A stretch of DNA of 63,358 bases, counting the filler, from Basidiobolus ranarum (lineage: Eukaryota): the NCBI GenBank assembly GCA_040143965.1. It is 12 parts of 12 records of this genome, joined end to end, with 100 filler letters (N's around TTAATTAATTAA, not from the genome) between each part and the next. Parts side by side here need not be neighbours in the genome. Positions count along the whole stretch, not along the records: positions 1 to 5,201 come from JASJQH010008546.1; 11 more parts are not named here. One strand, written 5' to 3'. Below, piece after piece: positions 1 to 63,358 of the stretch. The stretch's first letter is position 1. Each line of letters begins with the position of its first letter. The translations under genes were made by a program, and so were the position numbers. The notes beneath the pieces are model-generated. The model was not told where the DNA came from. It saw only the letters and a list, made by a program, of their open reading frames with translations, and made no database searches.

Positions 1-110
1 ACACTCTACTCTTGGCTCCATCCATTCTGGAAAACTCTACTTAGGCCCCATCCCTTCTGGAATTCTCTACACTTGGCTCCATCCTATCTGGAATACTCTT
101 AGGCCTAGCT
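1..110 (+). repeat. Imperfect ~30-bp tandem repeat (about 3 copies)
   Basis: ctctac(t/a)cttggctccatcc..tctggaa-like unit recurs at the contig start, within a CpG-free segment. Confidence 0.6.
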
Positions 111-896
111 TACTAGGAAACTCAGCTTTGTCAACTTCTTGACTTTATCTTTGAATATTATATTCTAACTTGGCTTATTTATTTATTGACTTTGTTTAAA
201 TTGATAAATAAATATTACACCTTCTGGTGTTTATCATCCCCCCTAAGTCAGAGATCTGACCTTTGGGAAATTTGGGCAAGCCCAATTCTTCCCATATACT
301 AGTGACTTGAGTATATTGTGAGAAGGGTGTACATGGGGGATTGCATCCTCCATACCCCCTGCTTTCTTTTTATACTGGGAGGACTGTGTCCCCCAGACCC
401 CCTCTTTTCATCCTTACCCTCCCTTACCCTTACCAGAACATCTATACCCTAACCCAACAAGCACCCAAATACTTTAACAGATTAGACAATGATCATGTGA
501 TTGGTCATATGATCTAACAGAAGGGATATGAGAATAGATTTTAGACATGTGATGAGTCACATGATAGGGTACCTAAATATGGTCAGGTGACTAGGTAGCA
601 ATGATGATAAACTACACAGATATTCATGCAAGTTGTCAAGATAAATTGTAGCTTTAAACAACTTTCAATGTTGGTGCACAACATGTGTCCTGGAGAGGTT
701 TGCACTTCTCTGATCCTTCTTCTTGCTGGAGAATACTGGTAGGAAATCCTGAAGTCAGAAAATTTGCTTCCTTTATAGAACAAGCTGAGAAGCTCTCCCT
801 TGCCTACAAGGAATATTTGGTGGACCTTTGGCAGAAATATCTTCAGAAGCATACTCCCTTTATGCTTTATTTTAATCCTAGTTTCATTCCACTAAT

Positions 897-1105
897 TTCT
901 ATTGTTGACAAACCATCTTTACCTTTGTTACTCCCTCCCACTCCACTTAATAGTGTCTTAGACTCTACTGACTTAACTTTTCTACTTTGTAAAATTCATG
1001 CTAATGCTCTGGAACTTCACAATTTAATTGAGAAACTGCAAAAGTAGTTATGGCTTCTTTGTTTTGCTTGAAATAAGGATTTCACCTGTTGGAGACTGTT
1101 GCCCT
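897..1105 (+). repeat. Dispersed repeat, probably TE-derived; inverted copy at 63150-63358
   Basis: ttctattgttgacaaaccat...ccacttaatagtgtcttagactctactgacttaacttttctactttg...gatttcacct aligns with the reverse complement of the window end on a different contig. Confidence 0.9.
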
Positions 1106-2105
1106 TAACCCTAAAAATGGGTATCTGGGCTAGCATTACTGAAATCATCATGCTAAAGGGCTATCTGGGCTAGTCTTTCTGCCCTAAAACAAAAAGTTTT
1201 ATCCTCACTGGTGTTACAGAAACTAGTAATAGTAATACTTGCATCATGTTTCATGAGTATCAACCTTATTGGCATGTTCCTGATGGAAGAACATACCTTT
1301 CTTTGATGTGTCATTACTTTGTTCTTTGCACTTTGCTTGTGTAACATTCTTACCACTGCAAGTGTTGCAAAAATGTTTTAACCATGAAAAAATATTTTTT
1401 GAAGATAGTTCCAATTCTCAAAGAATAATTTTCAATGGTGGTTATAACCCATGGTATACATGTATGCAGATGACCCTACTATTGCTTGCAAAGTATATAT
1501 ATTTGTGTGATGATCATCAGCCTTCATAAGCATGCTACTAGCCATATCACCATTAAGTGCATTAGTTGTGTGGACATGCATTCGTACATCTAGATATTTG
1601 AGCGGTAGACAAGAAGAACATCAGAGTTTACCCACTGACAGTGCACTCATGAACGTTTCTGTTTCGCACTTTCCACTAAAATATCCTGTTATTTTCTCTG
1701 CATATGGCGATCTAAATGTTGGGTTGATGCAAGTTATTTAGCTAAGCGCAAGGAGAGATCGGATAATTCTTGATTAATCCAGTGTCCTATGCATACATAA
1801 ATATGGTTTCAATTCAGTCATTGGCTGGCTTGAAGCAGGTGTCACAAGATGCTACATTTCTCATGAGATATAGCAGATCAGGGTAATGTTACCGATTACT
1901 GACTACCAATCAAGGCTACACTACCGAGCAAGGCTATATTACCGATACCGATTATCGATTCATGTGACACTTCGATCTCAGTCTTAGAATTAAGACAGCC
2001 TGATCATATAACTCCACCCCCATGTCCAGACATCATAAATACTCCAGTGCAAATGAGATTTAATAAAACTGTTTGCATGAACCATCCCTCTGCCAAAGGA
2101 AAGGA

Positions 2106-3983
2106 ATGACCGACGTTAAATGTTTAAATGCTACCCATAGTCGTTTGATTGATATCGGGAGGACGAGAGAAGATAGAACTTACAGATGTAGAGGGCTGAT
2201 GGCTATCATTACCAGTGTTTATGATAGTAACAAAATGGCCTGTATTGACACAGGCTTTTCGAAAACCACTATGCTAGATACGACATCTTGCCATATCAAC
2301 CCTGTCGGGGTTAACTCTCGAGCTTTAGATGCATATTCTATGGCACTTGTTGAGCATGCCCTTGCCAGTGGTGGATGGCGCGCTGGTTGGAAGACTCTGT
2401 GGAACATAACTGGACGCGATCCCACTTTGGAGAAGCTATATGACGAAGCAATGACATGCGTAGAGGTATATAGCAAGGTTGATATTCGCATAAACAGTGA
2501 TAGTAGGCCGTGGACGACGCGAATGAAAATCGTGAGGGAATGTGCCAGTTTATCATTGAATGAAATAGGGCCAAAAGGAAAAGGCGGCTCCGCTTGGAAA
2601 GAAAATGCAACGTACCAGTGTATACAATGTGAATGGAACTCAGAGGGCTATGAATTACTCAGTCCATGTGTGGCCTTCATCTGGTTGGGATTACAAAAGA
2701 AGATAGTCCATAGGGACGATTCAGATATATGTGCCAAGATGCAACTCCTGAGCACAGTCGATTATGATTATGATCTTAGTCCTGAAAGCAAGGATGGATT
2801 TTCATCTGCTTTAAGGGTTGCTGGAAACCTCTTTGTTGCGGACACCTCAGATGCTATGGGACGGGCTGCTAGCGCGGCCTTAATTAGTATGGATTTGCAA
2901 GCACAGGTAAGGGATGTGCAAAATTCGTGGCTTCTCCACGAAAAAAAACAGAGAGTTTACATGACTGGAGGAAATATAAGCCCAGGCGACTGGTACGATG
3001 CCACAGTCGCGGATTGTGCCGGTTTGTGTCCTTTTGGGTACGAAGGGACCGAGCGTCATGAAACAAGCAGGCCAGGGATGTTTATAGCTATGGTTCTTGC
3101 TAATTCGTATGATGTTGTGTACGATATTGGATGCTCAAACCGTATGTCCAGTATAACCTATGCGTATGAGAAGAGCAGAGTTATGGTAGATAAACTTTTA
3201 ACTCTGGTGGACACAGAGATGGAAGCAATAGCAGACCGTGTGTGTCATTCCGAAAGTGACATAGTACCATTGTACGGAGACAGTGCTGCTTTGGTGACAG
3301 GGGCTTGGGCCCCATTCAATTGTAGATATCGGAGTTGGGAGAGGTATGTCAAGTACATCCGACAGCAACGAAGTACCATAATGCATGTTGAAAATATCGA
3401 TGAATGTTTAGGCAGAGACAATGCGGTAGATTCAACAGTTAGCAACTGTGACTCCCTTAAAAACAGATGGATAAAGATGATTGATACGGGTGTGGAGACG
3501 GTGAACAAGCATAGGTCCGAAATTACGAGCGTCAGTTGGCCTATGATGACTCCTTGGACCGAAAATATACCTCTACCTCTATTATGTACACAATGTGCAC
3601 CACAGCTGAATGCTGTTGTATTTTGTGGAGAGAGAGAGGTATTGCTGATCCCTCCTGCAGTGGGGATGTGTAAAGATAGCAGTGCAGTATTTAGAGCGGC
3701 GGGACTAAGAGACATGGCAATGTGGGCAGCCGGTTCTGGTGCATGTGATTTGTGCGCCGTCAGAGTCTCACAGTGGATAGACGAAGCATCGCATATTGTA
3801 CTTGTGGACCTAATGAAGAGTGAACCCCGGCTTAACTCTCAACACTGGCTTGCTGAATGCTATGGTGTATGGGCAGTCGCAAAAAGTATAAAGATATCCT
3901 CCACACTGGTAGGATTCGAATTGGATGCAGAATTACTTCACGAAGAAGGGGCTATGGGTATTAGAGATGTGGAAGACTGCTGA
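2106..3983 (+). CDS. Intronless ~625-aa hypothetical protein; possible non-canonical class I terpene-synthase-fold enzyme
   Basis: Long open ORF with normal CpG content (first ATG 2106, alternative 2199). Motifs DYDYD (2760), NSYDVVYD (3102), WAPFNCRY = WxxxxxRY (3306), plus three CxxC pairs. The ORF is confident; the function is inference. Confidence 0.75.
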   Translation: MTDVKCLNATHSRLIDIGRTREDRTYRCRGLMAIITSVYDSNKMACIDTGFSKTTMLDTTSCHINPVGVNSRALDAYSMALVEHALASGGWRAGWKTLWNITGRDPTLEKLYDEAMTCVEVYSKVDIRINSDSRPWTTRMKIVRECASLSLNEIGPKGKGGSAWKENATYQCIQCEWNSEGYELLSPCVAFIWLGLQKKIVHRDDSDICAKMQLLSTVDYDYDLSPESKDGFSSALRVAGNLFVADTSDAMGRAASAALISMDLQAQVRDVQNSWLLHEKKQRVYMTGGNISPGDWYDATVADCAGLCPFGYEGTERHETSRPGMFIAMVLANSYDVVYDIGCSNRMSSITYAYEKSRVMVDKLLTLVDTEMEAIADRVCHSESDIVPLYGDSAALVTGAWAPFNCRYRSWERYVKYIRQQRSTIMHVENIDECLGRDNAVDSTVSNCDSLKNRWIKMIDTGVETVNKHRSEITSVSWPMMTPWTENIPLPLLCTQCAPQLNAVVFCGEREVLLIPPAVGMCKDSSAVFRAAGLRDMAMWAAGSGACDLCAVRVSQWIDEASHIVLVDLMKSEPRLNSQHWLAECYGVWAVAKSIKISSTLVGFELDAELLHEEGAMGIRDVEDC

Positions 3984-5201
3984 GTTATAGCTACGATATT
4001 CTTTTAATGTAAGCAATAGCTCAGGTACTATCATACCCACCAATGCATCATTGCTTAGCTTTTCTCTAATCGGTAGCTTGTAAGAACTTCTAACCATTTT
4101 TCTAAGTTGGCTAAAGTGGCACCGACCGATATACAAATAAATAACATCATTAACTTCGATGACACCAAACTAAAGACATCCTGTTGGTGCGGCATAGTTG
4201 CTATTAGTCTTGTGGATGTCAGAACCAAGTAACAGCTCTAGCATTAGTTGAATCATTCTGTCTAACATGACTAATCAACTAGATATGCTGTTGAATACAT
4301 AAGATCTGCAACACACGCAAATAGAGTTATATATCTTTGAATGTGAATAAAATTTGTAACAGTATATCAACAAAAATCTGCGGGTAAAATCAACATTGCC
4401 CCTAGGAAACGCATTTACTAAGCCAATAGAATCTTACATCTGTTTCACATATTCTGTATTTGATCGGCTAGTAGAATATGGCCCATACATACATGGAATT
4501 ATTTTAAGGTCTTAGTCTATGCACAATTGAATAGTCTACTTAGTCAACGCGAAATTAGCTCGCGTTTAGCCTGCTGATGTCAGCCGTCAGATATGCCCTG
4601 CCAAATGTTATGCTGTCGCCTGCATGGTGACTGCTATAGATCAATTGCATGTAATACAAACGGGATACTAAGCATGGATGAGTAACAATGCAGGCTTCTT
4701 TCACATCCCCTAACCCTAACCTTTTGCATAGAAGAATATATCGATCGAAGCCAACAAATCTCAATACATAATTATTATATTGCCTAGTCATTTGCAAACT
4801 AATCAAGTTAGTCACAGTGCACAGATATATTCCAATTGAGCAAATTATAACAAATTAGTATTATATAAGATTATTATTATTATATATTACCGATGCAAGT
4901 AAAACACATTCTACTACTCTTGCTACATTTATCATTTAGCAAGCACTACAATGATGTATTTGTTTCTCTTTCATTTATTATGGAGTTGACTTCATTCGGG
5001 TGCTGCATATCCCATATGTTAAAATCCAAATATCAACAATTACTTGCTATACTGTTAAATAACTACTTTTGTGAATAGACTAGAAAAGAACAGTATCTGC
5101 AATATACATGTTGTTATTTGGTCTCTACCACTAACTTTACTACAATGTATGAAGTATATGTTTGTGATACAGCTAGAGAACACATTTATAAACACTATTA
5201 A

Positions 5202-5301
5202 NNNNNNNNNNNNNNNNNNNNNNNNNNNNNNNNNNNNNNNNNNNNTTAATTAATTAANNNNNNNNNNNNNNNNNNNNNNNNNNNNNNNNNNNNNNNNNNN
5301 N
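5202..5301. other. Artificial contig linker N44-TTAATTAATTAA-N44 (stops in all six frames); also at 10499-10598, 15793-15892, 21085-21184, 26376-26475, 31666-31765, 36951-37050, 42235-42334, 47518-47617, 52799-52898, 58079-58178
   Basis: Identical 100-nt spacer occurs 11 times; the contigs between them shrink from 5201 to 5180 bp in order. Confidence 0.98.
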
Positions 5302-10498: not shown

Positions 10499-10984
10499 NN
10501 NNNNNNNNNNNNNNNNNNNNNNNNNNNNNNNNNNNNNNNNNNTTAATTAATTAANNNNNNNNNNNNNNNNNNNNNNNNNNNNNNNNNNNNNNNNNNNNTA
10601 TTTCAATCTAGGTGTATTTCATTCTTGGCCAGGTTATCCTGCTAATTCATGCTCCTTTCTTAACAAAATCCTGTGTTACTATGATTTAAATAGGTCAATC
10701 CCACAGTACTTGTAAATCTTCTTTGCTTCTTAATCATTTTATCATCAATAATTGAAGACTGAATGAAAAAAGTAGTCTTACTAGGGTAAGGTTTTCAGTG
10801 ATAGTTGCTCTGAAGAGAAAGATCTCTATCCTCAATTATAGCTGCTCAGAAGGGTATCAAGTTCCCCTTCAGGCAAACCAATGCCACTCTTACCCTCCGC
10901 CTTGATGTTCGCATACCAACCATTCAATGAATTGGTCAGTGCTTTCTGATAACCTTTTATATCTGGCTTAACTTATTTACCGAC

Positions 10985-15792: not shown

Positions 15793-15892
15793 NNNNNNNN
15801 NNNNNNNNNNNNNNNNNNNNNNNNNNNNNNNNNNNNTTAATTAATTAANNNNNNNNNNNNNNNNNNNNNNNNNNNNNNNNNNNNNNNNNNNN

Positions 15893-19962: not shown

Positions 19963-21730
19963 ATCTTGGTGGTTTTATCTACAAAATAGTAAAAAAATCT
20001 CACAAGCATATATATGTCCTTACGTTGGTTCATGATGCAGGTGCAATTCCGTGCAATACTTAATGCTAATAATATACGGCACAAGTACACTAGATTCACA
20101 ACCATTATATTACTCCAATCTGCTATCTATTATTCACTTTGCTTTTTAGAATACATTGCTACCGATAATTCATGCCAAGGACTTATTATTATATTCACTC
20201 ACTCTACGTTCATAATTACTGCTACATTCAAGTAAAGCCTCGACGATGTCAACCCATTTTTCAAGTTGAATTTGATCAACCTCTAGATACTTGATTCTCT
20301 CAGAGGAAGCCTTTGATCAAACGCAGTTGATTGTTCTACAATAATCAAAGGGCACAAATGAAAAATAACCTGCTTACCCTAGGATAAGTTCAGTGGATGT
20401 GGGGTGGGGTGGAATGCTTACTTGCACCACAAAAGCTACTCGTCAACATTGAACTTTCAATCGTATGGCAATTTCATATGTTACCACTCCGCTATATAAA
20501 TATTCATCCACAGCATAAGGTTGAGCTTTACGAGTGGTTACAGAATAGGTATCAGACATTTCTTCCATTAACTCTAAATAGGTTCAATTCTTATCAAATC
20601 TTCAAGATAGGCTAGGTGTTTGTTTACAAAATACTGGGCCAAATTTACAAAATTTAAAACTTTGCCCACTTCAGGGTGAATGAAGGAGATTCAGTGAGAT
20701 ACCTAGAGTTAGTCTTAGATAAACCTTATTTTTCTTTACCACTGTTTAATTGGGTAACGATCTGTCCCTCGATCAAGAAATCCAAGATTGATCAGATTTT
20801 AACGCATGAAGAATTAGTAAGAAACAGATGATGGCTCTAAATCTTCATATAATTGCAAAAGTGAAACAAATCCCATATTTGTAAAGAAAGTCAATATTAT
20901 AAAACCCGATGGTAAAAGAGTTGTCAAGTTTGTGGACAATAATGAGAAGGTGATATAATCAATTTTATATGAAAGCATTTTCTAAATATCACTGCAAATG
21001 AATCAAACAGAGTTTTGAATAGTAGCGCAGAACAGAGTAGTGGGGGGGGGGTAAGTCATGTTAATATGATATTTGAGAGCCGCTNNNNNNNNNNNNNNNN
21101 NNNNNNNNNNNNNNNNNNNNNNNNNNNNTTAATTAATTAANNNNNNNNNNNNNNNNNNNNNNNNNNNNNNNNNNNNNNNNNNNNTTCTCAGTGTTCCTCA
21201 ACAAATTCAATATTCCTCTCTCATTTCTATCCAAGCCTAGTATCCACTAGCACCTACAGAACACCAAGCCTAGCTGCCTAGCAAACCTACTCTCTGCCAT
21301 AACATAGCAACCCACTGCTATTCCCAAGACATATATTAGTTAGATCTGCTCTGCTGATATATCCTGCTTAAACAGTTCTAAGATTCTGCACTTAACTGTT
21401 TCTTTAGTTCAGTAAAGTTCAAGACTTTTTATCCACTTTTCTCTTGGACACAACAATACTGATGCTCTTTTTCAGTTCCATAGTCAAAAAGCACTAAAGT
21501 TAAGGCTGGCAGCCTTGATTTTGGCCATCAGACCTGAGTTGTTATGAATATTACATTGAAGTGTAAGTTTTATAAATCTATGAATTTCCCTTTCCGTATC
21601 AAGCTGTTTTCATGCAATTGACAAAAATTTGGCACATATATCCCCACAAGATTAATAGTTCTTTCCCTATATTAAATTTGTAAGCACAATATGATATTCC
21701 CAATAAAGATTCTGAAAGCCTAACCCTAAG

Positions 21731-24730: not shown

Positions 24731-26375
24731 ATGTCTATTCATTTCCGCAACTCTTCCGTTTGCCGTAACTTTACTTCAAGAGTCTCCCCAACTCTTTCCC
24801 GTCCATCGAATTTGGGGAGAAGCTCATCAGCTTTCCCCCGACTTGCTTCTTCCGCAAGTAAGCCTTTGCCCCCGCGATGCTTGTCCAATTATGGCATGCA
24901 ATATCGTAACTCTTCTACCACTGCCCAACTAGGTGAGCAAGCACACTCACGTATGTGGTCAGCCGCTTTATACGGCTCAGCTTTCGTTGCTGGTATTGGT
25001 ACATTGTCATTCATCTACTTGGCTCCCAACCCATCACACACCGACGCCGCTCTTCACGACATATCACTTGTGTGCTCCTCTCCATCCAGTGTCTTGAGTG
25101 CTGATCCCAGAATTGGTGTCAAAAATAAAACCACTTATGATCTCCTTGTATCACTGCTTGTCTACAAGATGTGCATGATATCTACACTGGTTGAATGGTC
25201 ACCTCATCTAATCGAGCTATGTGAAAAACTTCATCTCACTGGGCCTACATACTGGTTCATCAAAAAAACGTTCTTCAGTCATTTCTGTGGTGGCGAGACG
25301 CAAGATGAAATTGAATCCACCATTGAAGGTCTCAAATCTGCCGGTATTGGGTCTATACTAGACGTGTCTATTGAAGTGGACCTTGATAAGCTTCCTGAAG
25401 CGGATACGCCTGAGGCTATTCGTGTTCTTTGGAACGATCGAGCGGATCAGGTTATGTCTCTGCTGAAAGGTTCTGTACAGGCAGCTAGTGTTGAACCCAA
25501 TAGCTTCGCGGCTATCAAACTGACCCCTCTTATCTCGCCTCTTACACTTCAAAAAGTTTCCTATAACCTTTACAACTTAAGAGCTAGCTTTGTTCATGCT
25601 GACGTTGACAAAGATGGGAAACTCACCAAAGAGGAGTTTACTTCTGTCATTAAGCAGCTTCCTGGTGCTCATCATTCCAATATCGATTCGGTAGTGAATA
25701 CACTTTTTGAAAGAGCTGATACCAGCCATGATGGGTTAGTTGATTGGATTGAATTTTCCGCCTCTCTCGCCCTTAAAGACACTCTATCCCGAAACCTTTT
25801 CATGGGAACAGGTGATACAGATGATAATAATTCCAAAGATTCTGCAGCCTTCGTTCCCCTGAGCATGACTGATTTAGAAGATTTTGATTTATTTATGGGG
25901 CGTATCACATCCATTTGTGAATATGCGAAGCAAAGTAAAGTACGTCTCATGATCGATGCTGAGCAATCATACTTCCAAGATGCCATTGATTACGCCGCCA
26001 TGGAAGTCAGTCGGCGTTATAATCAACTTGGCGAAGAGACGGGTCCTCTAGTATTCAATACATACCAAATGTATCTTAAAGATAGTACTCGTAAACTGAT
26101 GAGTGACTATGAACGCTCCCAACGTCAAAATTTTACATTTGGTGCTAAACTTGTCAGAGGTGCCTACATGGTTACAGAGCGCAAGCGATGTGCCAAGCTT
26201 GGTATTTCAGATATCATTAATGACACCATTGAGGATACTCATCAATGCTATGACTCTGGGGTTGAGTTCTTACTGGATCAGATCAAGCCCACTGACACCC
26301 TATCAACTACCCATGCCGCTTTCATGGTCGCATCCCATAATAAGGACTCTGTGGATAAGACCTGCACTGGGTTAG
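24731..26375 (+). CDS. PUT1: Mitochondrial proline dehydrogenase with an EF-hand pair insert; 3' truncated
   Basis: Arg/Ser-rich transit peptide; HFCGGE, AIKLT, MIDAEQSYFQ, NTYQMYLKD, GAKLVRGAYM, VASHN. Confidence 0.95.
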
Positions 26376-26475
26376 NNNNNNNNNNNNNNNNNNNNNNNNN
26401 NNNNNNNNNNNNNNNNNNNTTAATTAATTAANNNNNNNNNNNNNNNNNNNNNNNNNNNNNNNNNNNNNNNNNNNN

Positions 26476-31665: not shown

Positions 31666-31765
31666 NNNNNNNNNNNNNNNNNNNNNNNNNNNNNNNNNNN
31701 NNNNNNNNNTTAATTAATTAANNNNNNNNNNNNNNNNNNNNNNNNNNNNNNNNNNNNNNNNNNNN

Positions 31766-36730: not shown

Positions 36731-38219
36731 GAAACGGAGGAGACAATTGCTATAGAAATAGCAGCACTGGAGCTGGTGCATATGGGTAAGGGGGATGAAA
36801 AGTGCCAGGTGGTGTGGACTTTATTTAGCTTATATACTTATCTAAACAAAGTGACAATCAAGATATCAATCTTTTAAGATATTATGACAATACTGGATCA
36901 TATCCATACTTGACTTGATGACTAATGTAATCAAGTTCAGAGGATGTAAANNNNNNNNNNNNNNNNNNNNNNNNNNNNNNNNNNNNNNNNNNNNTTAATT
37001 AATTAANNNNNNNNNNNNNNNNNNNNNNNNNNNNNNNNNNNNNNNNNNNNCAATCAATTCAAACCTTGATCCTATCTTAAATGGCTCATTCATATTGAAT
37101 TTTCCACTATATAGCTGCATAAGTAATATTCAACTATTGTTGAATAGTAAGTGCATAGTGCCTGCTGGAAAGCTCTGGCTTCAGCTGATCCCCTTTAGAA
37201 ATAGAATCTTTGGCTCATGGCCAGTTCCAAGTTTAGCATTAGATTGACTATTTGATTAACTTTATCAGTGAGCATGTTCAAATCTAACTAGGCTCTTGAT
37301 GGTAGAAACATGATGTTTAGCAATGTATTTGGATAGTAGTATTATGTATGCTTCTTTAGTGAGCTCCATTGATTTGCCAAAATTCACAGCAAGATAGTGC
37401 ATTATGCCTGCAAAACCCCCCATGTTTACTGATGGCTGGAGTGTCACCAAGTCATACAATCAAATTAGCTTTAAAGAAATATTCACACATCTGAATCCCA
37501 ATGATAAGATGGATAGTATCAAAATATTATTACTCTTTTACTGTTCAGAGGGAGGAAGATTCAAGTGAATTAAAATTATTGGCTAGCAAGCCTTTTCAAA
37601 AGTATATTGGTTTGGTGAGAAACCAACCAGAGCCATTACAAATGCTGATCATATTTGTTCTCAAAGAAACCTTGACTTTTCAGATTCTGGTAGTGCTATC
37701 CATTGGACTTGTTCTCTGTAATAGTGCCAGATTGTGCTGTTTATATCATATTGGATAGAGTGTTCTAAAATATATGTGACACAATTTGACACTATCCAGC
37801 ACTCTCTGGCATGATCAATTTCAATCACATTTACTCTAATATATTGATCCAAGGTCCAATAAATCATGGCACAATGCAACAAGTCCATCAAGTATATAAA
37901 AGTTCAAAATGGAAGAAGGCAATCCAGTATCTATCTCAATGGAGACAAATTCTAGCATGGCCAAATATGGCTCAGATAGGATTTGCTTGGATTGTAAAAA
38001 AGCCAGAAATTTACCTACTAATCTATTGAGGATAGTTTGTTATATATCATGATTAAAGCATGGCCAGATATTGCATATTCTGAGGGAGTCACCAGCTAAT
38101 ATATTCATAGTTAGGGATCTGAACAAATCAATATAGTTAAGTGTATCTTCAATTATTAGAAAGATATTATAGATCTATGCTCACAATGTATATATGTTTT
38201 CAATAAACCTTGATCTGAT

Positions 38220-42234: not shown

Positions 42235-42970
42235 NNNNNNNNNNNNNNNNNNNNNNNNNNNNNNNNNNNNNNNNNNNNTTAATTAATTAANNNNNNNNNN
42301 NNNNNNNNNNNNNNNNNNNNNNNNNNNNNNNNNNCTAATTAATTACTCCATCAATGATAAAATTAATAGACGTTTGATCTTTCATTTTAGGCTAAAACGA
42401 AATAGTATAGTTTGCTATTTCCATGCACTTGGCTCCCAAATCAGTCAAGCTACGGTTTGGGCCATTTCATCATGTTAGCTAGTCCCCACGCCTTACCGTC
42501 AAACAATCATCAAGTACCCTATTTAGTTGCCTTTGTAGCGTAGCATACCCAAAACTCCAAGGTCTAGTCAAGAGTTTAAATTCAGGGTTACACAGAACAA
42601 AGGTAGGTTCGACATTTTGGGGACCCAAGTCTGCTCAAGTTGTCTATCAATCAGATTTATCGCAAACCTATGGCTAGAAGTCACCGATAATGTGAATCAT
42701 AGCGTTTTCGATTATTTCCATACACAAGATCAAGGCCCAGTTTTAAAACCAGATGATTTAGGACATATATTGTTGTCAAAATAAGCTTGCCAAGGAAACT
42801 ACCATTGTAAAAGTACCGTGATACATCCCAAAAATTGTTCCTCCTCAGTTATCGGTTTTCATTCTCGCTTTTTTTTGATCAACTTTGGATTAGCTTCAAC
42901 TGCTTAAACTCTGTCTTCCTCCCCTTTCTTAACTGAACTTGCAAATTAGTATTCTTTTTATATACTTTTG

Positions 42971-47517: not shown

Positions 47518-47782
47518 NNNNNNNNNNNNNNNNNNNNNNNNNNNNNNNNNNNNNNNNNNNNTTAATTAATTAANNNNNNNNNNNNNNNNNNNNNNNNNNN
47601 NNNNNNNNNNNNNNNNNTGATATAACCACAAGTACATGATATCCATTTTCATGGAGGTATTAATTAACGAATCAATCAACTAGTTATTACTGTTATGAAG
47701 TAACGTTTATTGTAGAAAACTTCACCCAGGAAATCAATCCATTGAAAGGTGAGAATGCACAATGGGAAATTAAAGAAGTAAT

Positions 47783-48984: not shown

Positions 48985-49905
48985 TCAGCACTTCATTTGA
49001 CTTTGCTCATGACCTGTGATGGTAAATCCATATGCGTCCAGTTTAATATTAGAGCTCAGGGTGAAATCACCACGTTTAACGAGATCCATCAAGTCACTAG
49101 TACGATCGGCGGATTCTGGCCAGACATCATCTTCAGTACAACACAACATTTGCCAACGAGTATGCACAAATGCTTCAAGAAAATCTTCTTCACACATATT
49201 GCCCATAGGACCAGTCATACGAAGGATAGTTGGTAAACTAATACCATCGTCCTCTTCCCAACCATGCTGAATAGCAGTGTCATAGAAGATAGCTCTGCCT
49301 AATTCGGAACGAATCCCCACCTTTTTAGCGATCTTCAATGCCGGCTTATAATACATATTTTCGGCCGTATGATCCTGTAGTTTTACAAAGTCACTATCTT
49401 GACAAGCAGCTTTTTTCCAGTTCTGCGGGAATCCTTTCAAATTCTTGACGCTACCTCGGCCATTTGAATCCCAATCCAGGTTGCTAAGGCGTTTCAACTC
49501 TTTCCTATATTGATCCAAGTTATTACCTGGTTTTATCTTGTGATACTCCTCCACAACATGGTAAGCATCATTGGTCCCAGTGGTAAATCCTACAGAACCA
49601 CAAGTATAACCTCTTCCATCATACAAATTTTCGCATGAGGTATAACCAAAGTCAGTATTACCATGTTCAAATACATTGATCATGAGCTTTGCCTTTTGTC
49701 GTTTGAAACTATCGATTTCTTCATAATTCCAGCCCCTAATTTCACTCTCATAGTTTTTACCTGTGGGTTTGTATTTACGATATCGATTACAAGTACTCGA
49801 ATTAATAGCATACTTACCTTTGCAATATGGAAAACTTGCACCTTCCGTGTAAGTGAGTGATACCAGAAAAGCAACGGCCAGGCGACACTTCTTTGTAAGG
49901 AGCAT
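48985..49905 (-). CDS. Secreted GH46 chitosanase
   Basis: Signal peptide; NVFEHG (catalytic Glu), ENLYDGRGYTCGSVGFTTGT (catalytic Asp), YDTAIQHG; intronless. Confidence 0.93.
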   Translation of the reverse strand: MLLTKKCRLAVAFLVSLTYTEGASFPYCKGKYAINSSTCNRYRKYKPTGKNYESEIRGWNYEEIDSFKRQKAKLMINVFEHGNTDFGYTSCENLYDGRGYTCGSVGFTTGTNDAYHVVEEYHKIKPGNNLDQYRKELKRLSNLDWDSNGRGSVKNLKGFPQNWKKAACQDSDFVKLQDHTAENMYYKPALKIAKKVGIRSELGRAIFYDTAIQHGWEEDDGISLPTILRMTGPMGNMCEEDFLEAFVHTRWQMLCCTEDDVWPESADRTSDLMDLVKRGDFTLSSNIKLDAYGFTITGHEQSQMKC

Positions 49906-52798: not shown

Positions 52799-52951
52799 NN
52801 NNNNNNNNNNNNNNNNNNNNNNNNNNNNNNNNNNNNNNNNNNTTAATTAATTAANNNNNNNNNNNNNNNNNNNNNNNNNNNNNNNNNNNNNNNNNNNNGC
52901 CTCAGCCGCTGAAAATTGGGATATTCCACCTTTGAACTTTTGAAAATAACC

Positions 52952-58078: not shown

Positions 58079-58178
58079 NNNNNNNNNNNNNNNNNNNNNN
58101 NNNNNNNNNNNNNNNNNNNNNNTTAATTAATTAANNNNNNNNNNNNNNNNNNNNNNNNNNNNNNNNNNNNNNNNNNNN

Positions 58179-63149: not shown

Positions 63150-63358
63150 GGGGAGACAGTCACCAAGAGGTGAAATCTTTATTTCAAACAACACAAAGAA
63201 GCCATAACTACTTTTGTAGTTTCTTAATCAAAGTGTGAAGTTCTGGAGTATTGGTATCAATGTTGCAAAGTAGAAAAGTTAAGTCAGTAGAGTCTAAGAC
63301 ACTATTAAGTGGAGTGGGAGGGAGCAATAGAGGTAAAAATGGTTTGTCAACAATAGAA
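63150..63358 (-). repeat. Dispersed repeat, inverted copy of 897-1105
   Basis: Direct alignment of the reverse complement. Confidence 0.9.

Follow-up and report, generated by a model that had tools for sequence, protein, structure and literature searches.

Background

Terpene cyclases set the carbon skeletons of the largest class of natural products. Cyclase families that escape sequence profiles have, to our knowledge, rarely been found (ABA3, AsR6, VigB, TriDTC and classes IB-IF), and each of them opened new chemistry. Here, we describe a gene of the fungus Basidiobolus ranarum (GenBank assembly GCA_040143965.1) that occupies positions 2106..3983 on the plus strand of a 63,358-nucleotide stretch of DNA, referred to below as the window, that is, the whole stretch that was analyzed. 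The gene encodes a protein of 625 residues (P0001), which is probably a class I terpene cyclase of a noncanonical, Mg-dependent kind, with a zinc site of four Cys in its C-terminal part, and which belongs to an unnamed family of fungal proteins.

VigB (Virgaria nigra, vinigrol) is presented in its report as a noncanonical diterpene cyclase of 589 amino acids (aa) with a central class I-like core that carries the motifs D260YGT, R339/G340 at the kink, N369DIQDYERD and an RY pair; the same text describes essential N- and C-terminal parts, an unusual helix connectivity and a cytochrome P450 (P450) in the cluster (PMC12703729). In BcABA3, described as an all-alpha cyclase, an RY pair is present and two CxxC pairs after the core form a Zn site; in the ABA3 proteins, Mg is chelated by a single conserved Glu, without Asp-rich or NSE motifs (PMC11695735). 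The TriDTC proteins of Trichoderma (Tri4155) are diterpene cyclases reported to have a DxxDxxxD triad as the sole metal motif and no RY pair (PMC12370890), and classes IB-IF were discovered through structure-model mining (PMC11234867). The present family shares features with ABA3, VigB and TriDTC and is a member of none of them by sequence, VigB and TriDTC being set apart by their published descriptions.

Gene structure and conserved motifs

The coding sequence is an uninterrupted open reading frame (ORF) of 625 codons plus a stop, read from the first ATG; in the ORF listing it spans 2073..3983 on the plus strand and amounts to 636 aa if counted from the TTG at 2073. Alternative starts in P0001 are M32 and M44, the second of which is where the public gene call (P0002) begins, and relatives align from residue 28-30 through to the end of the protein. 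The gene had originally been predicted as an intronless ORF of ~625 aa, and its end-to-end alignment with relatives fits this, for example over residues 30-625 against residues 44-646 of P0012 (Aspergillus versicolor). A scripted check of the ORF showed that the nucleotide (nt) positions first assigned to all motifs are exact; the residue numbers N344/D347/D351 given at that time are TTG-based and correspond to N333/D336/D340 in the ATG-based numbering used here.

Conservation was scored in an alignment of 30 rows (A2), comprising the window protein, three of the eight proteins returned by a word-index search and 26 of the 69 representatives returned by HMMER, picked for length. DYDxD, NxxDxxxD, WxxFxxRY and two CxxC pairs are kept across this alignment; for the first two motifs and RY, conservation in homologues had been proposed as a check at the outset. 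All features described in this section lie on the plus strand. The acidic motif DYDYD (2760..2774; residues 219-223) has the family consensus VDYDxD, sits at the C-terminal end of a predicted helix (203-220) and is conserved at D219 in 21/26 rows, at D221 in 25/26 and at D223 in 26/27; it is proposed to be the Mg-binding counterpart of DDxxD. SPGDWYDATVADCAG is found at aa 292 (nt 2979), as given earlier. It is followed by DCAG (3012..3023; residues 303-306), which falls in the break between helices 293-302 and 308-313, 30 residues ahead of the second motif, with D303 in 25/27 rows and C304 in 20/27. Judged by the topology of the model, DCAG would occupy the position of the class I G1/G2 kink.

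The second motif, NSYDVVYD (3102..3125; residues 333-340), begins 114 codons after DYDYD and has the consensus N-x-H-D-L-L-Y-D. D336 is present in all 30 rows and D340 in 29/30, alongside N333 (21/30), S344 (23/30) and Y352 (30/30); Asp is outside the six commonest residues at position 333. We propose this segment as the second metal-binding motif, possibly extended by S344. Sixty-eight codons past NSYDVVYD, WAPFNCRY (aa 401, nt 3306) opens the segment WAPFNCRYRSWERYVKY (3306..3356; residues 401-417), whose RY pair, R407/Y408, lies in a loop between helices 390-404 and 410-421, ~74-75 residues after N333. W401, F404 and R407 occur in 30/30 rows and Y408, R409, E412, R413, K416 and Y417 in 28/30, and the segment is proposed to bind diphosphate. 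Upstream of these motifs, a glycine-lysine loop, GPKxxGGxxWK (2568..2600; residues 155-165), is conserved at P156 (23/24), at K157, G160 and G161 (24/24 each) and at W164 (23/24), a pattern that may denote a phosphate-binding loop.

Three CxxC pairs had been singled out at the start, two of which are family features. CTQC (3585..3596; residues 494-497), at a loop-to-helix junction, provides the first half of a putative four-Cys zinc site and is conserved at C494 in 26/27 rows and at C497 in 24/25; CDLC (3744..3755; residues 547-550), with the family consensus CCDxCAC, provides the second half, with C547 and C550 each in 26/27. Most relatives add C546 (21/27) and C552 (17/27), which in the window protein are A546 and V552. 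The remaining pair, CIQC (2619..2630; residues 172-175), is present in the window protein and is no family feature, C172 being found in 1/25 rows and Cys being outside the six commonest residues at position 175.

When the protein was shuffled 20,000 times, an acidic motif, N/D..D...D/E and W.....RY came up once in this order at such spacing, for patterns that were picked after the sequence had been seen. At least three CxxC pairs were reached in 5.3% of the shuffles, which makes the number of such pairs unremarkable by itself.

Predicted structure

No Pfam family matched the window protein at E <= 10. Template-free AlphaFold2 models were built from the family alignment, and both are almost all-helical: the whole-protein model has a predicted local distance difference test score (pLDDT) of 83.7 and a predicted template modeling score (pTM) of 0.89, and the model of residues 160-625 has a pLDDT of 86.4 and a pTM of 0.91. 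Three parts can be delineated, all on the plus strand. The N-terminal helical part (2178..2585; residues ~25-160), outside the canonical cyclase core, is modeled as helices 25-40, 52-59, 71-102 and 106-124 followed by two short strands; the class I terpene-cyclase-like helical core covers 2592..3368 (residues 163-421); and the C-terminal helical part covers 3456..3941 (residues 451-612), with pLDDT of 88-98 for blocks 491-610.

Two exhaustive structural searches of 48,161 chains returned the isoprenoid-synthase fold in 50/50 listed matches each. Among the matches listed, class I terpene cyclases are the majority, and SkABA3 and BcABA3 are included; in one of the searches the ABA3 structures rank 13 and 34, under canonical cyclases. 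Most of the structural alignments begin at residue 163-173. Many stop at residue 408-411, facing chain residues 312-338 near the C-termini of the cyclases, and some extend to residues 596-625.

In class I cyclases, helices D, E, F, G1/G2, H, alpha-1, I, J and K follow one another in that sequence. In the model of the present protein, helix 203-220, with DYDYD at its end, is followed by helices 226-245, 250-278, 293-302 and 308-313; the second motif closes helix 315-335 and enters helix 337-342, after which come helices 349-357, 361-381 and 390-404, the RY loop and helix 410-421. By helix order, in a mapping of our own as distinct from a measured superposition, the conserved motifs would thus fall where class I motifs fall.

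Comparison with described cyclases

Like canonical class I synthases, the protein has a predicted alpha-helical isoprenoid-synthase fold with an RY pair downstream of the second motif. Unlike them (1-epi-cubenol synthase, 9HQ2; Cop4, 8GR5; epi-isozizaene synthase, 3KB9; selinadiene synthase, 4OKM), it contains neither DDxxD nor (N/D)Dxx(S/T)xxxE, the residues at i+4 and i+8 from N333 being V and I; a noncanonical D336/D340/S344 register is possible. The ~160 extra residues before the core and ~200 after it, the Cys4 cluster and the lack of any Pfam or profile match set the protein further apart from the canonical enzymes.

The likeness to VigB extends to the layout. Both are large fungal proteins annotated as hypothetical (625 versus 589 aa), with a central core (here residues ~163-421) between flanking parts that are conserved here and essential in VigB; in both, the first motif opens with D-Y (D219YDYD versus D260YGT), the second opens with N and an RY pair follows. 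The kink precedes the second motif by 30 residues in each (R339 to N369 in VigB), and the successive spacings of 114, 30 and 75 residues here compare with 109, 30 and ~67 in VigB. P450 is a partner enzyme in both cases, here in relatives of the window protein. There are also differences. By its published description, VigB has R339 at the kink where the present protein has D303, and VigB is 30% identical to a canonical cyclase over 125 aa, whereas the present family has no such match. The present family has a Cys4 cluster, whereas the words cysteine and zinc have 0 occurrences in the VigB paper (PMC12703729). The VigB-like patterns DYGT, NDIQD and ND..DY..D were found in 0/79 proteins examined, so that VigB appears to lie outside sequence reach.

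Extra N- and C-terminal domains and a possible Zn site, which had been part of the original prediction, find parallels in the published layouts of BcABA3 and VigB. Unlike the ABA3 proteins as described (BcABA3, RuABA3 and SkABA3; PDB 8ZAC and 8ZAF), the present family keeps two conserved acidic motifs. The starts of the two CxxC pairs are 53 residues apart here (C494 and C547) as against 23 in BcABA3 (C384 and C407), and the ABA3 proteins, of ~350-430 aa, are without the N-terminal part. The ABA3 chains 8zaf_A and 8zac_A, which are present in the copy of the PDB that was searched, gave no match at E <= 10 by phmmer or with the A2 profile.

The resemblance to TriDTC as described consists in being a fungal hypothetical protein without a known domain and in the x2/x3 spacing of a triad on one helix (N333-x2-D336-x3-D340 versus D445-x2-D448-x3-D452). 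Compared with that published description, the present family differs in its invariant RY pair and in the N that comes first in the triad in 21/30 rows.

Distribution of the family in fungi

The protein had been taken for an orphan, which is wrong because 69 cluster representatives match it at E <= 0.001, 32 of them at E <= 1e-30, when 1.84 billion representatives are scanned exhaustively with HMMER; one of the 69 is the window's own gene call. A word-index search yielded eight proteins, and a repeat with the A2 profile returned the identical eight. Ten relatives were looked up, seven of which carry organism names (Oculimacula, Cudoniella, Mollisia, Aspergillus versicolor, two Mycena and Gymnopus); these represent Ascomycota and Basidiomycota, and all are annotated as hypothetical or uncharacterized. 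No prokaryotic relative was found in 185,579 species genomes by a narrow scan with one peptide pattern. Literature searches, which covered main texts and a minority of the subscription journals, found no paper describing the family; those on noncanonical cyclases, P450 fusions and Foldseek-based mining brought up work on ABA3, VigB, TriDTC and classes ID-IF.

Relatives are also encoded at seven metagenome loci, six of which are distinct (L003 = L004). For a pair of orthologous loci, the ratio of nonsynonymous to synonymous substitution rates (dN/dS) is 0.18. A maximum-likelihood tree of 32 rows places the window protein, without resolution, between clades that hold P450-fused members. In the relative at one of the seven loci (L005:2821-4335), the matched frame is broken by three stop codons, owing perhaps to introns or to a pseudogene, and weak relatives with extra domains (P0071, Beta-lactamase-family, E 1.1e-15; P0065, faint ankyrin) may be gene-model mergers.

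Association with cytochromes P450

In several relatives, a P450 and the cyclase-like protein are parts of the same polypeptide. The Pfam p450 domain was found N-terminal in P0003 (Aspergillus falconensis), P0029 and P0046 (3/10 scanned) and also in P0009, and P0005, a metagenome gene call, starts within the C-terminal helix of the P450 and carries on in the same frame; metagenome gene calls of that kind generally ignore introns. Searched by tblastn with the P450 part, 6/7 metagenome loci (L001, L002, L003/L004, L006 and L007) have a P450 gene within ~2 kb of the relative, placed in tandem, divergently or convergently; as L003 and L004 are identical, this amounts to 5/6 distinct loci. L005 is the sole locus among the seven with no P450 match by tblastn. 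We found no paper that describes a fusion of a class I cyclase-like protein with a P450.

Proposed mechanism and alternative explanations

The predicted fold and the conserved acidic, N..D...D, RY and two CxxC motifs support the original proposal of a divergent terpene cyclase or prenyl-transfer enzyme, and among the explanations considered we regard a noncanonical Mg-dependent class I terpene cyclase as the probable one. For this enzyme, we infer how metal and substrate are bound, what the substrate and the reaction are, and a zinc site, as follows. The helical isoprenoid-synthase core (~163-421) would bind a prenyl diphosphate such as farnesyl diphosphate (FPP) or geranylgeranyl diphosphate (GGPP), with Mg2+ held at one helix end by DYDxD and on a later helix by N333/D336/D340, perhaps joined by S344. 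The diphosphate would be gripped by R407/Y408 together with the conserved basic residues R409, R413 and K416, and possibly K157 and R269; its loss would generate a carbocation that cyclizes in a pocket lined by conserved aromatics. The C-terminal helical part would carry a structural zinc on C494, C497, C547 and C550, as in BcABA3, and in relatives the product would probably be oxidized by the fused or adjacent P450.

Several observations weigh against the cyclase interpretation. The motifs are noncanonical, with DYDxD in place of DDxxD and acids at i+3 and i+7 from N333 rather than at i+4 and i+8. The window protein departs from its relatives at 7/62 highly conserved positions (114, 282, 287, 478, 555, 583 and 605), none of which is inside the proposed catalytic motifs, and its end branch, of 1.47, is the longest in the tree. 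The PDB was searched by sequence with four queries (whole protein, A2 profile, core and C-terminal part); no terpene synthase appeared at E <= 10, and the sole matches were chance ones to antibodies. Pfam searches with 30 family members gave 13 weak families, none of them a terpene synthase and with 0 relevant for 30/30. The isoprenoid-synthase bundle that was anticipated at the outset was recovered in all of the listed exhaustive matches; with Foldseek, however, neither model had a PDB match at E <= 0.001, and terpene cyclases and prenyl diphosphate synthases make up most of the weak rows, among which there are also membrane proteins. No P450 was detected on the gene's own contig (2105 nt upstream and 1218 nt downstream), nor was any detected in the window by tblastn or, at a best E = 1, with a P450 hidden Markov model on six frames. 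Near the relatives, a scan of the L007 ORFs of at least 120 aa and one L004 ORF revealed no prenyl diphosphate synthase.

These negatives leave room for a likeness that is generically helical, in a protein whose chemistry has nothing to do with prenyl diphosphates, such as another reaction on a P450 substrate, scaffolding or regulation. We consider this rather unlikely; the ordered and conserved motif series and the uniform fold of the listed structural matches stand on the other side. It is also improbable that the protein, with a terpene-synthase fold and a bound prenyl diphosphate, catalyzes transfer of the prenyl group to an acceptor or releases a linear product instead of cyclizing, in the manner of DabA or of a chain-length prenyl diphosphate synthase. 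Such enzymes share the fold, but cyclases top both structural lists, in which the first prenyl diphosphate synthase ranks 23 and 40, respectively; the N-prenyltransferase DabA aligned at a root-mean-square deviation of 7.6 A; and, according to two reports, an RY pair conserved downstream of the second motif is a cyclase feature (PMC11695735, PMC12703729).

A relic or domesticated DNA transposase (Plavaka/KDZ, Tnp2 or RAG1-like), with the acids as a DDE-type site and the CxxC pairs as a zinc finger, is suggested by language-model look-alike clusters with Plavaka (38% and 37% of members), Transposase_21 and RAG1 at scores of 0.84-0.90, but these are leads only (nearly all <0.9, the best just 0.90, with 116-142/256 features in common), and the explanation is very improbable given that no transposase Pfam family matches any of 30 members at E <= 10, that the confident models are almost all helical and have no RNase H-like sheet, that the looked-up clusters occur on one or two contigs each, save one Logan member on 15, and therefore do not suggest a multi-copy element, that no further or recurring copy of the gene was found within the window, and that the in-frame P450 fusion is not transposon-like. 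Structure-based look-alike rows from the Atlas were discarded as meaningless because the Atlas model is poor (pLDDT 0.28).

Genomic context

The window consists of 12 pieces, sorted by falling length from 5201 down to 5180 bases and joined by artificial 100-base spacers, each made of 44 N, TTAATTAATTAA and 44 N. The first spacer (5202..5301, unstranded) closes the gene-bearing contig, and the others occupy 10499-10598, 15793-15892, 21085-21184, 26376-26475, 31666-31765, 36951-37050, 42235-42334, 47518-47617, 52799-52898 and 58079-58178. The N-rich palindromic repeats that recur every 5.3 kb were accordingly rejected as a genomic feature, being these artificial joints between contigs. Since the window is a series of contigs joined by spacers, the true context of the gene is 1-5201 only; gene order across spacers is artificial, and ORFs that enter a spacer are cut genes. 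Genes for a nonribosomal peptide synthetase (NRPS), a proline dehydrogenase, a glycoside hydrolase of family 46 (GH46), an aminotransferase and an M28 protein were considered as neighbors and rejected, as they are sited on different contigs, which gives no ground for assuming linkage.

A dispersed 203-nt repeat is shared, at 90% identity and on opposite strands, between 897-1099, upstream of the gene, and 63156-63358 on the last contig. The ORF of the gene has a GC content of 45% (42% at third codon positions, GC3), and genes on other pieces have 44% GC and 40-43% GC3. On the fifth piece, 24731-26375 encodes a proline dehydrogenase that has an EF-hand pair and is truncated where the contig ends; along its length it shows 100% identity to a public proline dehydrogenase of Basidiobolus ranarum, and its next matches are from other Basidiobolus (73-76%, with one partial at 88%) and Mortierellaceae (42-48%). 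Taken together, the repeat, the GC values and the proline dehydrogenase match support a common source, and the pieces appear from these sequence features to share one genome of origin.

One entire contig (26476-31665, minus strand) consists of NRPS fragments whose ends are probably cut by the contig, with one A-T-C ORF (AMP-binding, PP-binding, Condensation) and one ORF with condensation domains. A GH46 chitosanase-type gene (Pfam Glyco_hydro_46, E 1.3e-42) is located at 48985-49905 on the minus strand, and a pattern scan of prokaryotic genomes found no close relative of it.

Implications

The gene is a good candidate for an enzyme of natural-product biosynthesis that forms a scaffold and has so far gone undescribed. 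We know of no annotation pipeline that flags the family, which comprises ~70 sequence clusters. It is plausible, if somewhat short of probable, that these proteins form a new subclass of class I terpene cyclases, distinguished by a VDYDxD + NxHDLLYD metal signature, an invariant W..F..RYR.WER..KY and a Cys4 zinc module, found in Ascomycota, Basidiomycota and an early-diverging Basidiobolus-type fungus, fused to a tailoring P450 in several lineages and making a terpenoid scaffold that no genome-mining tool predicts.

If the family is active, its conserved motifs would serve as ready beacons for genome mining, and the P450 fusions would offer a self-contained cyclase-oxidase pair for expression. 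The secondary metabolism of Basidiobolus is a topic under study, as one report indicates (PMC7466969), and an active enzyme of this kind would give the Basidiobolus-type lineage an extra terpenoid route.

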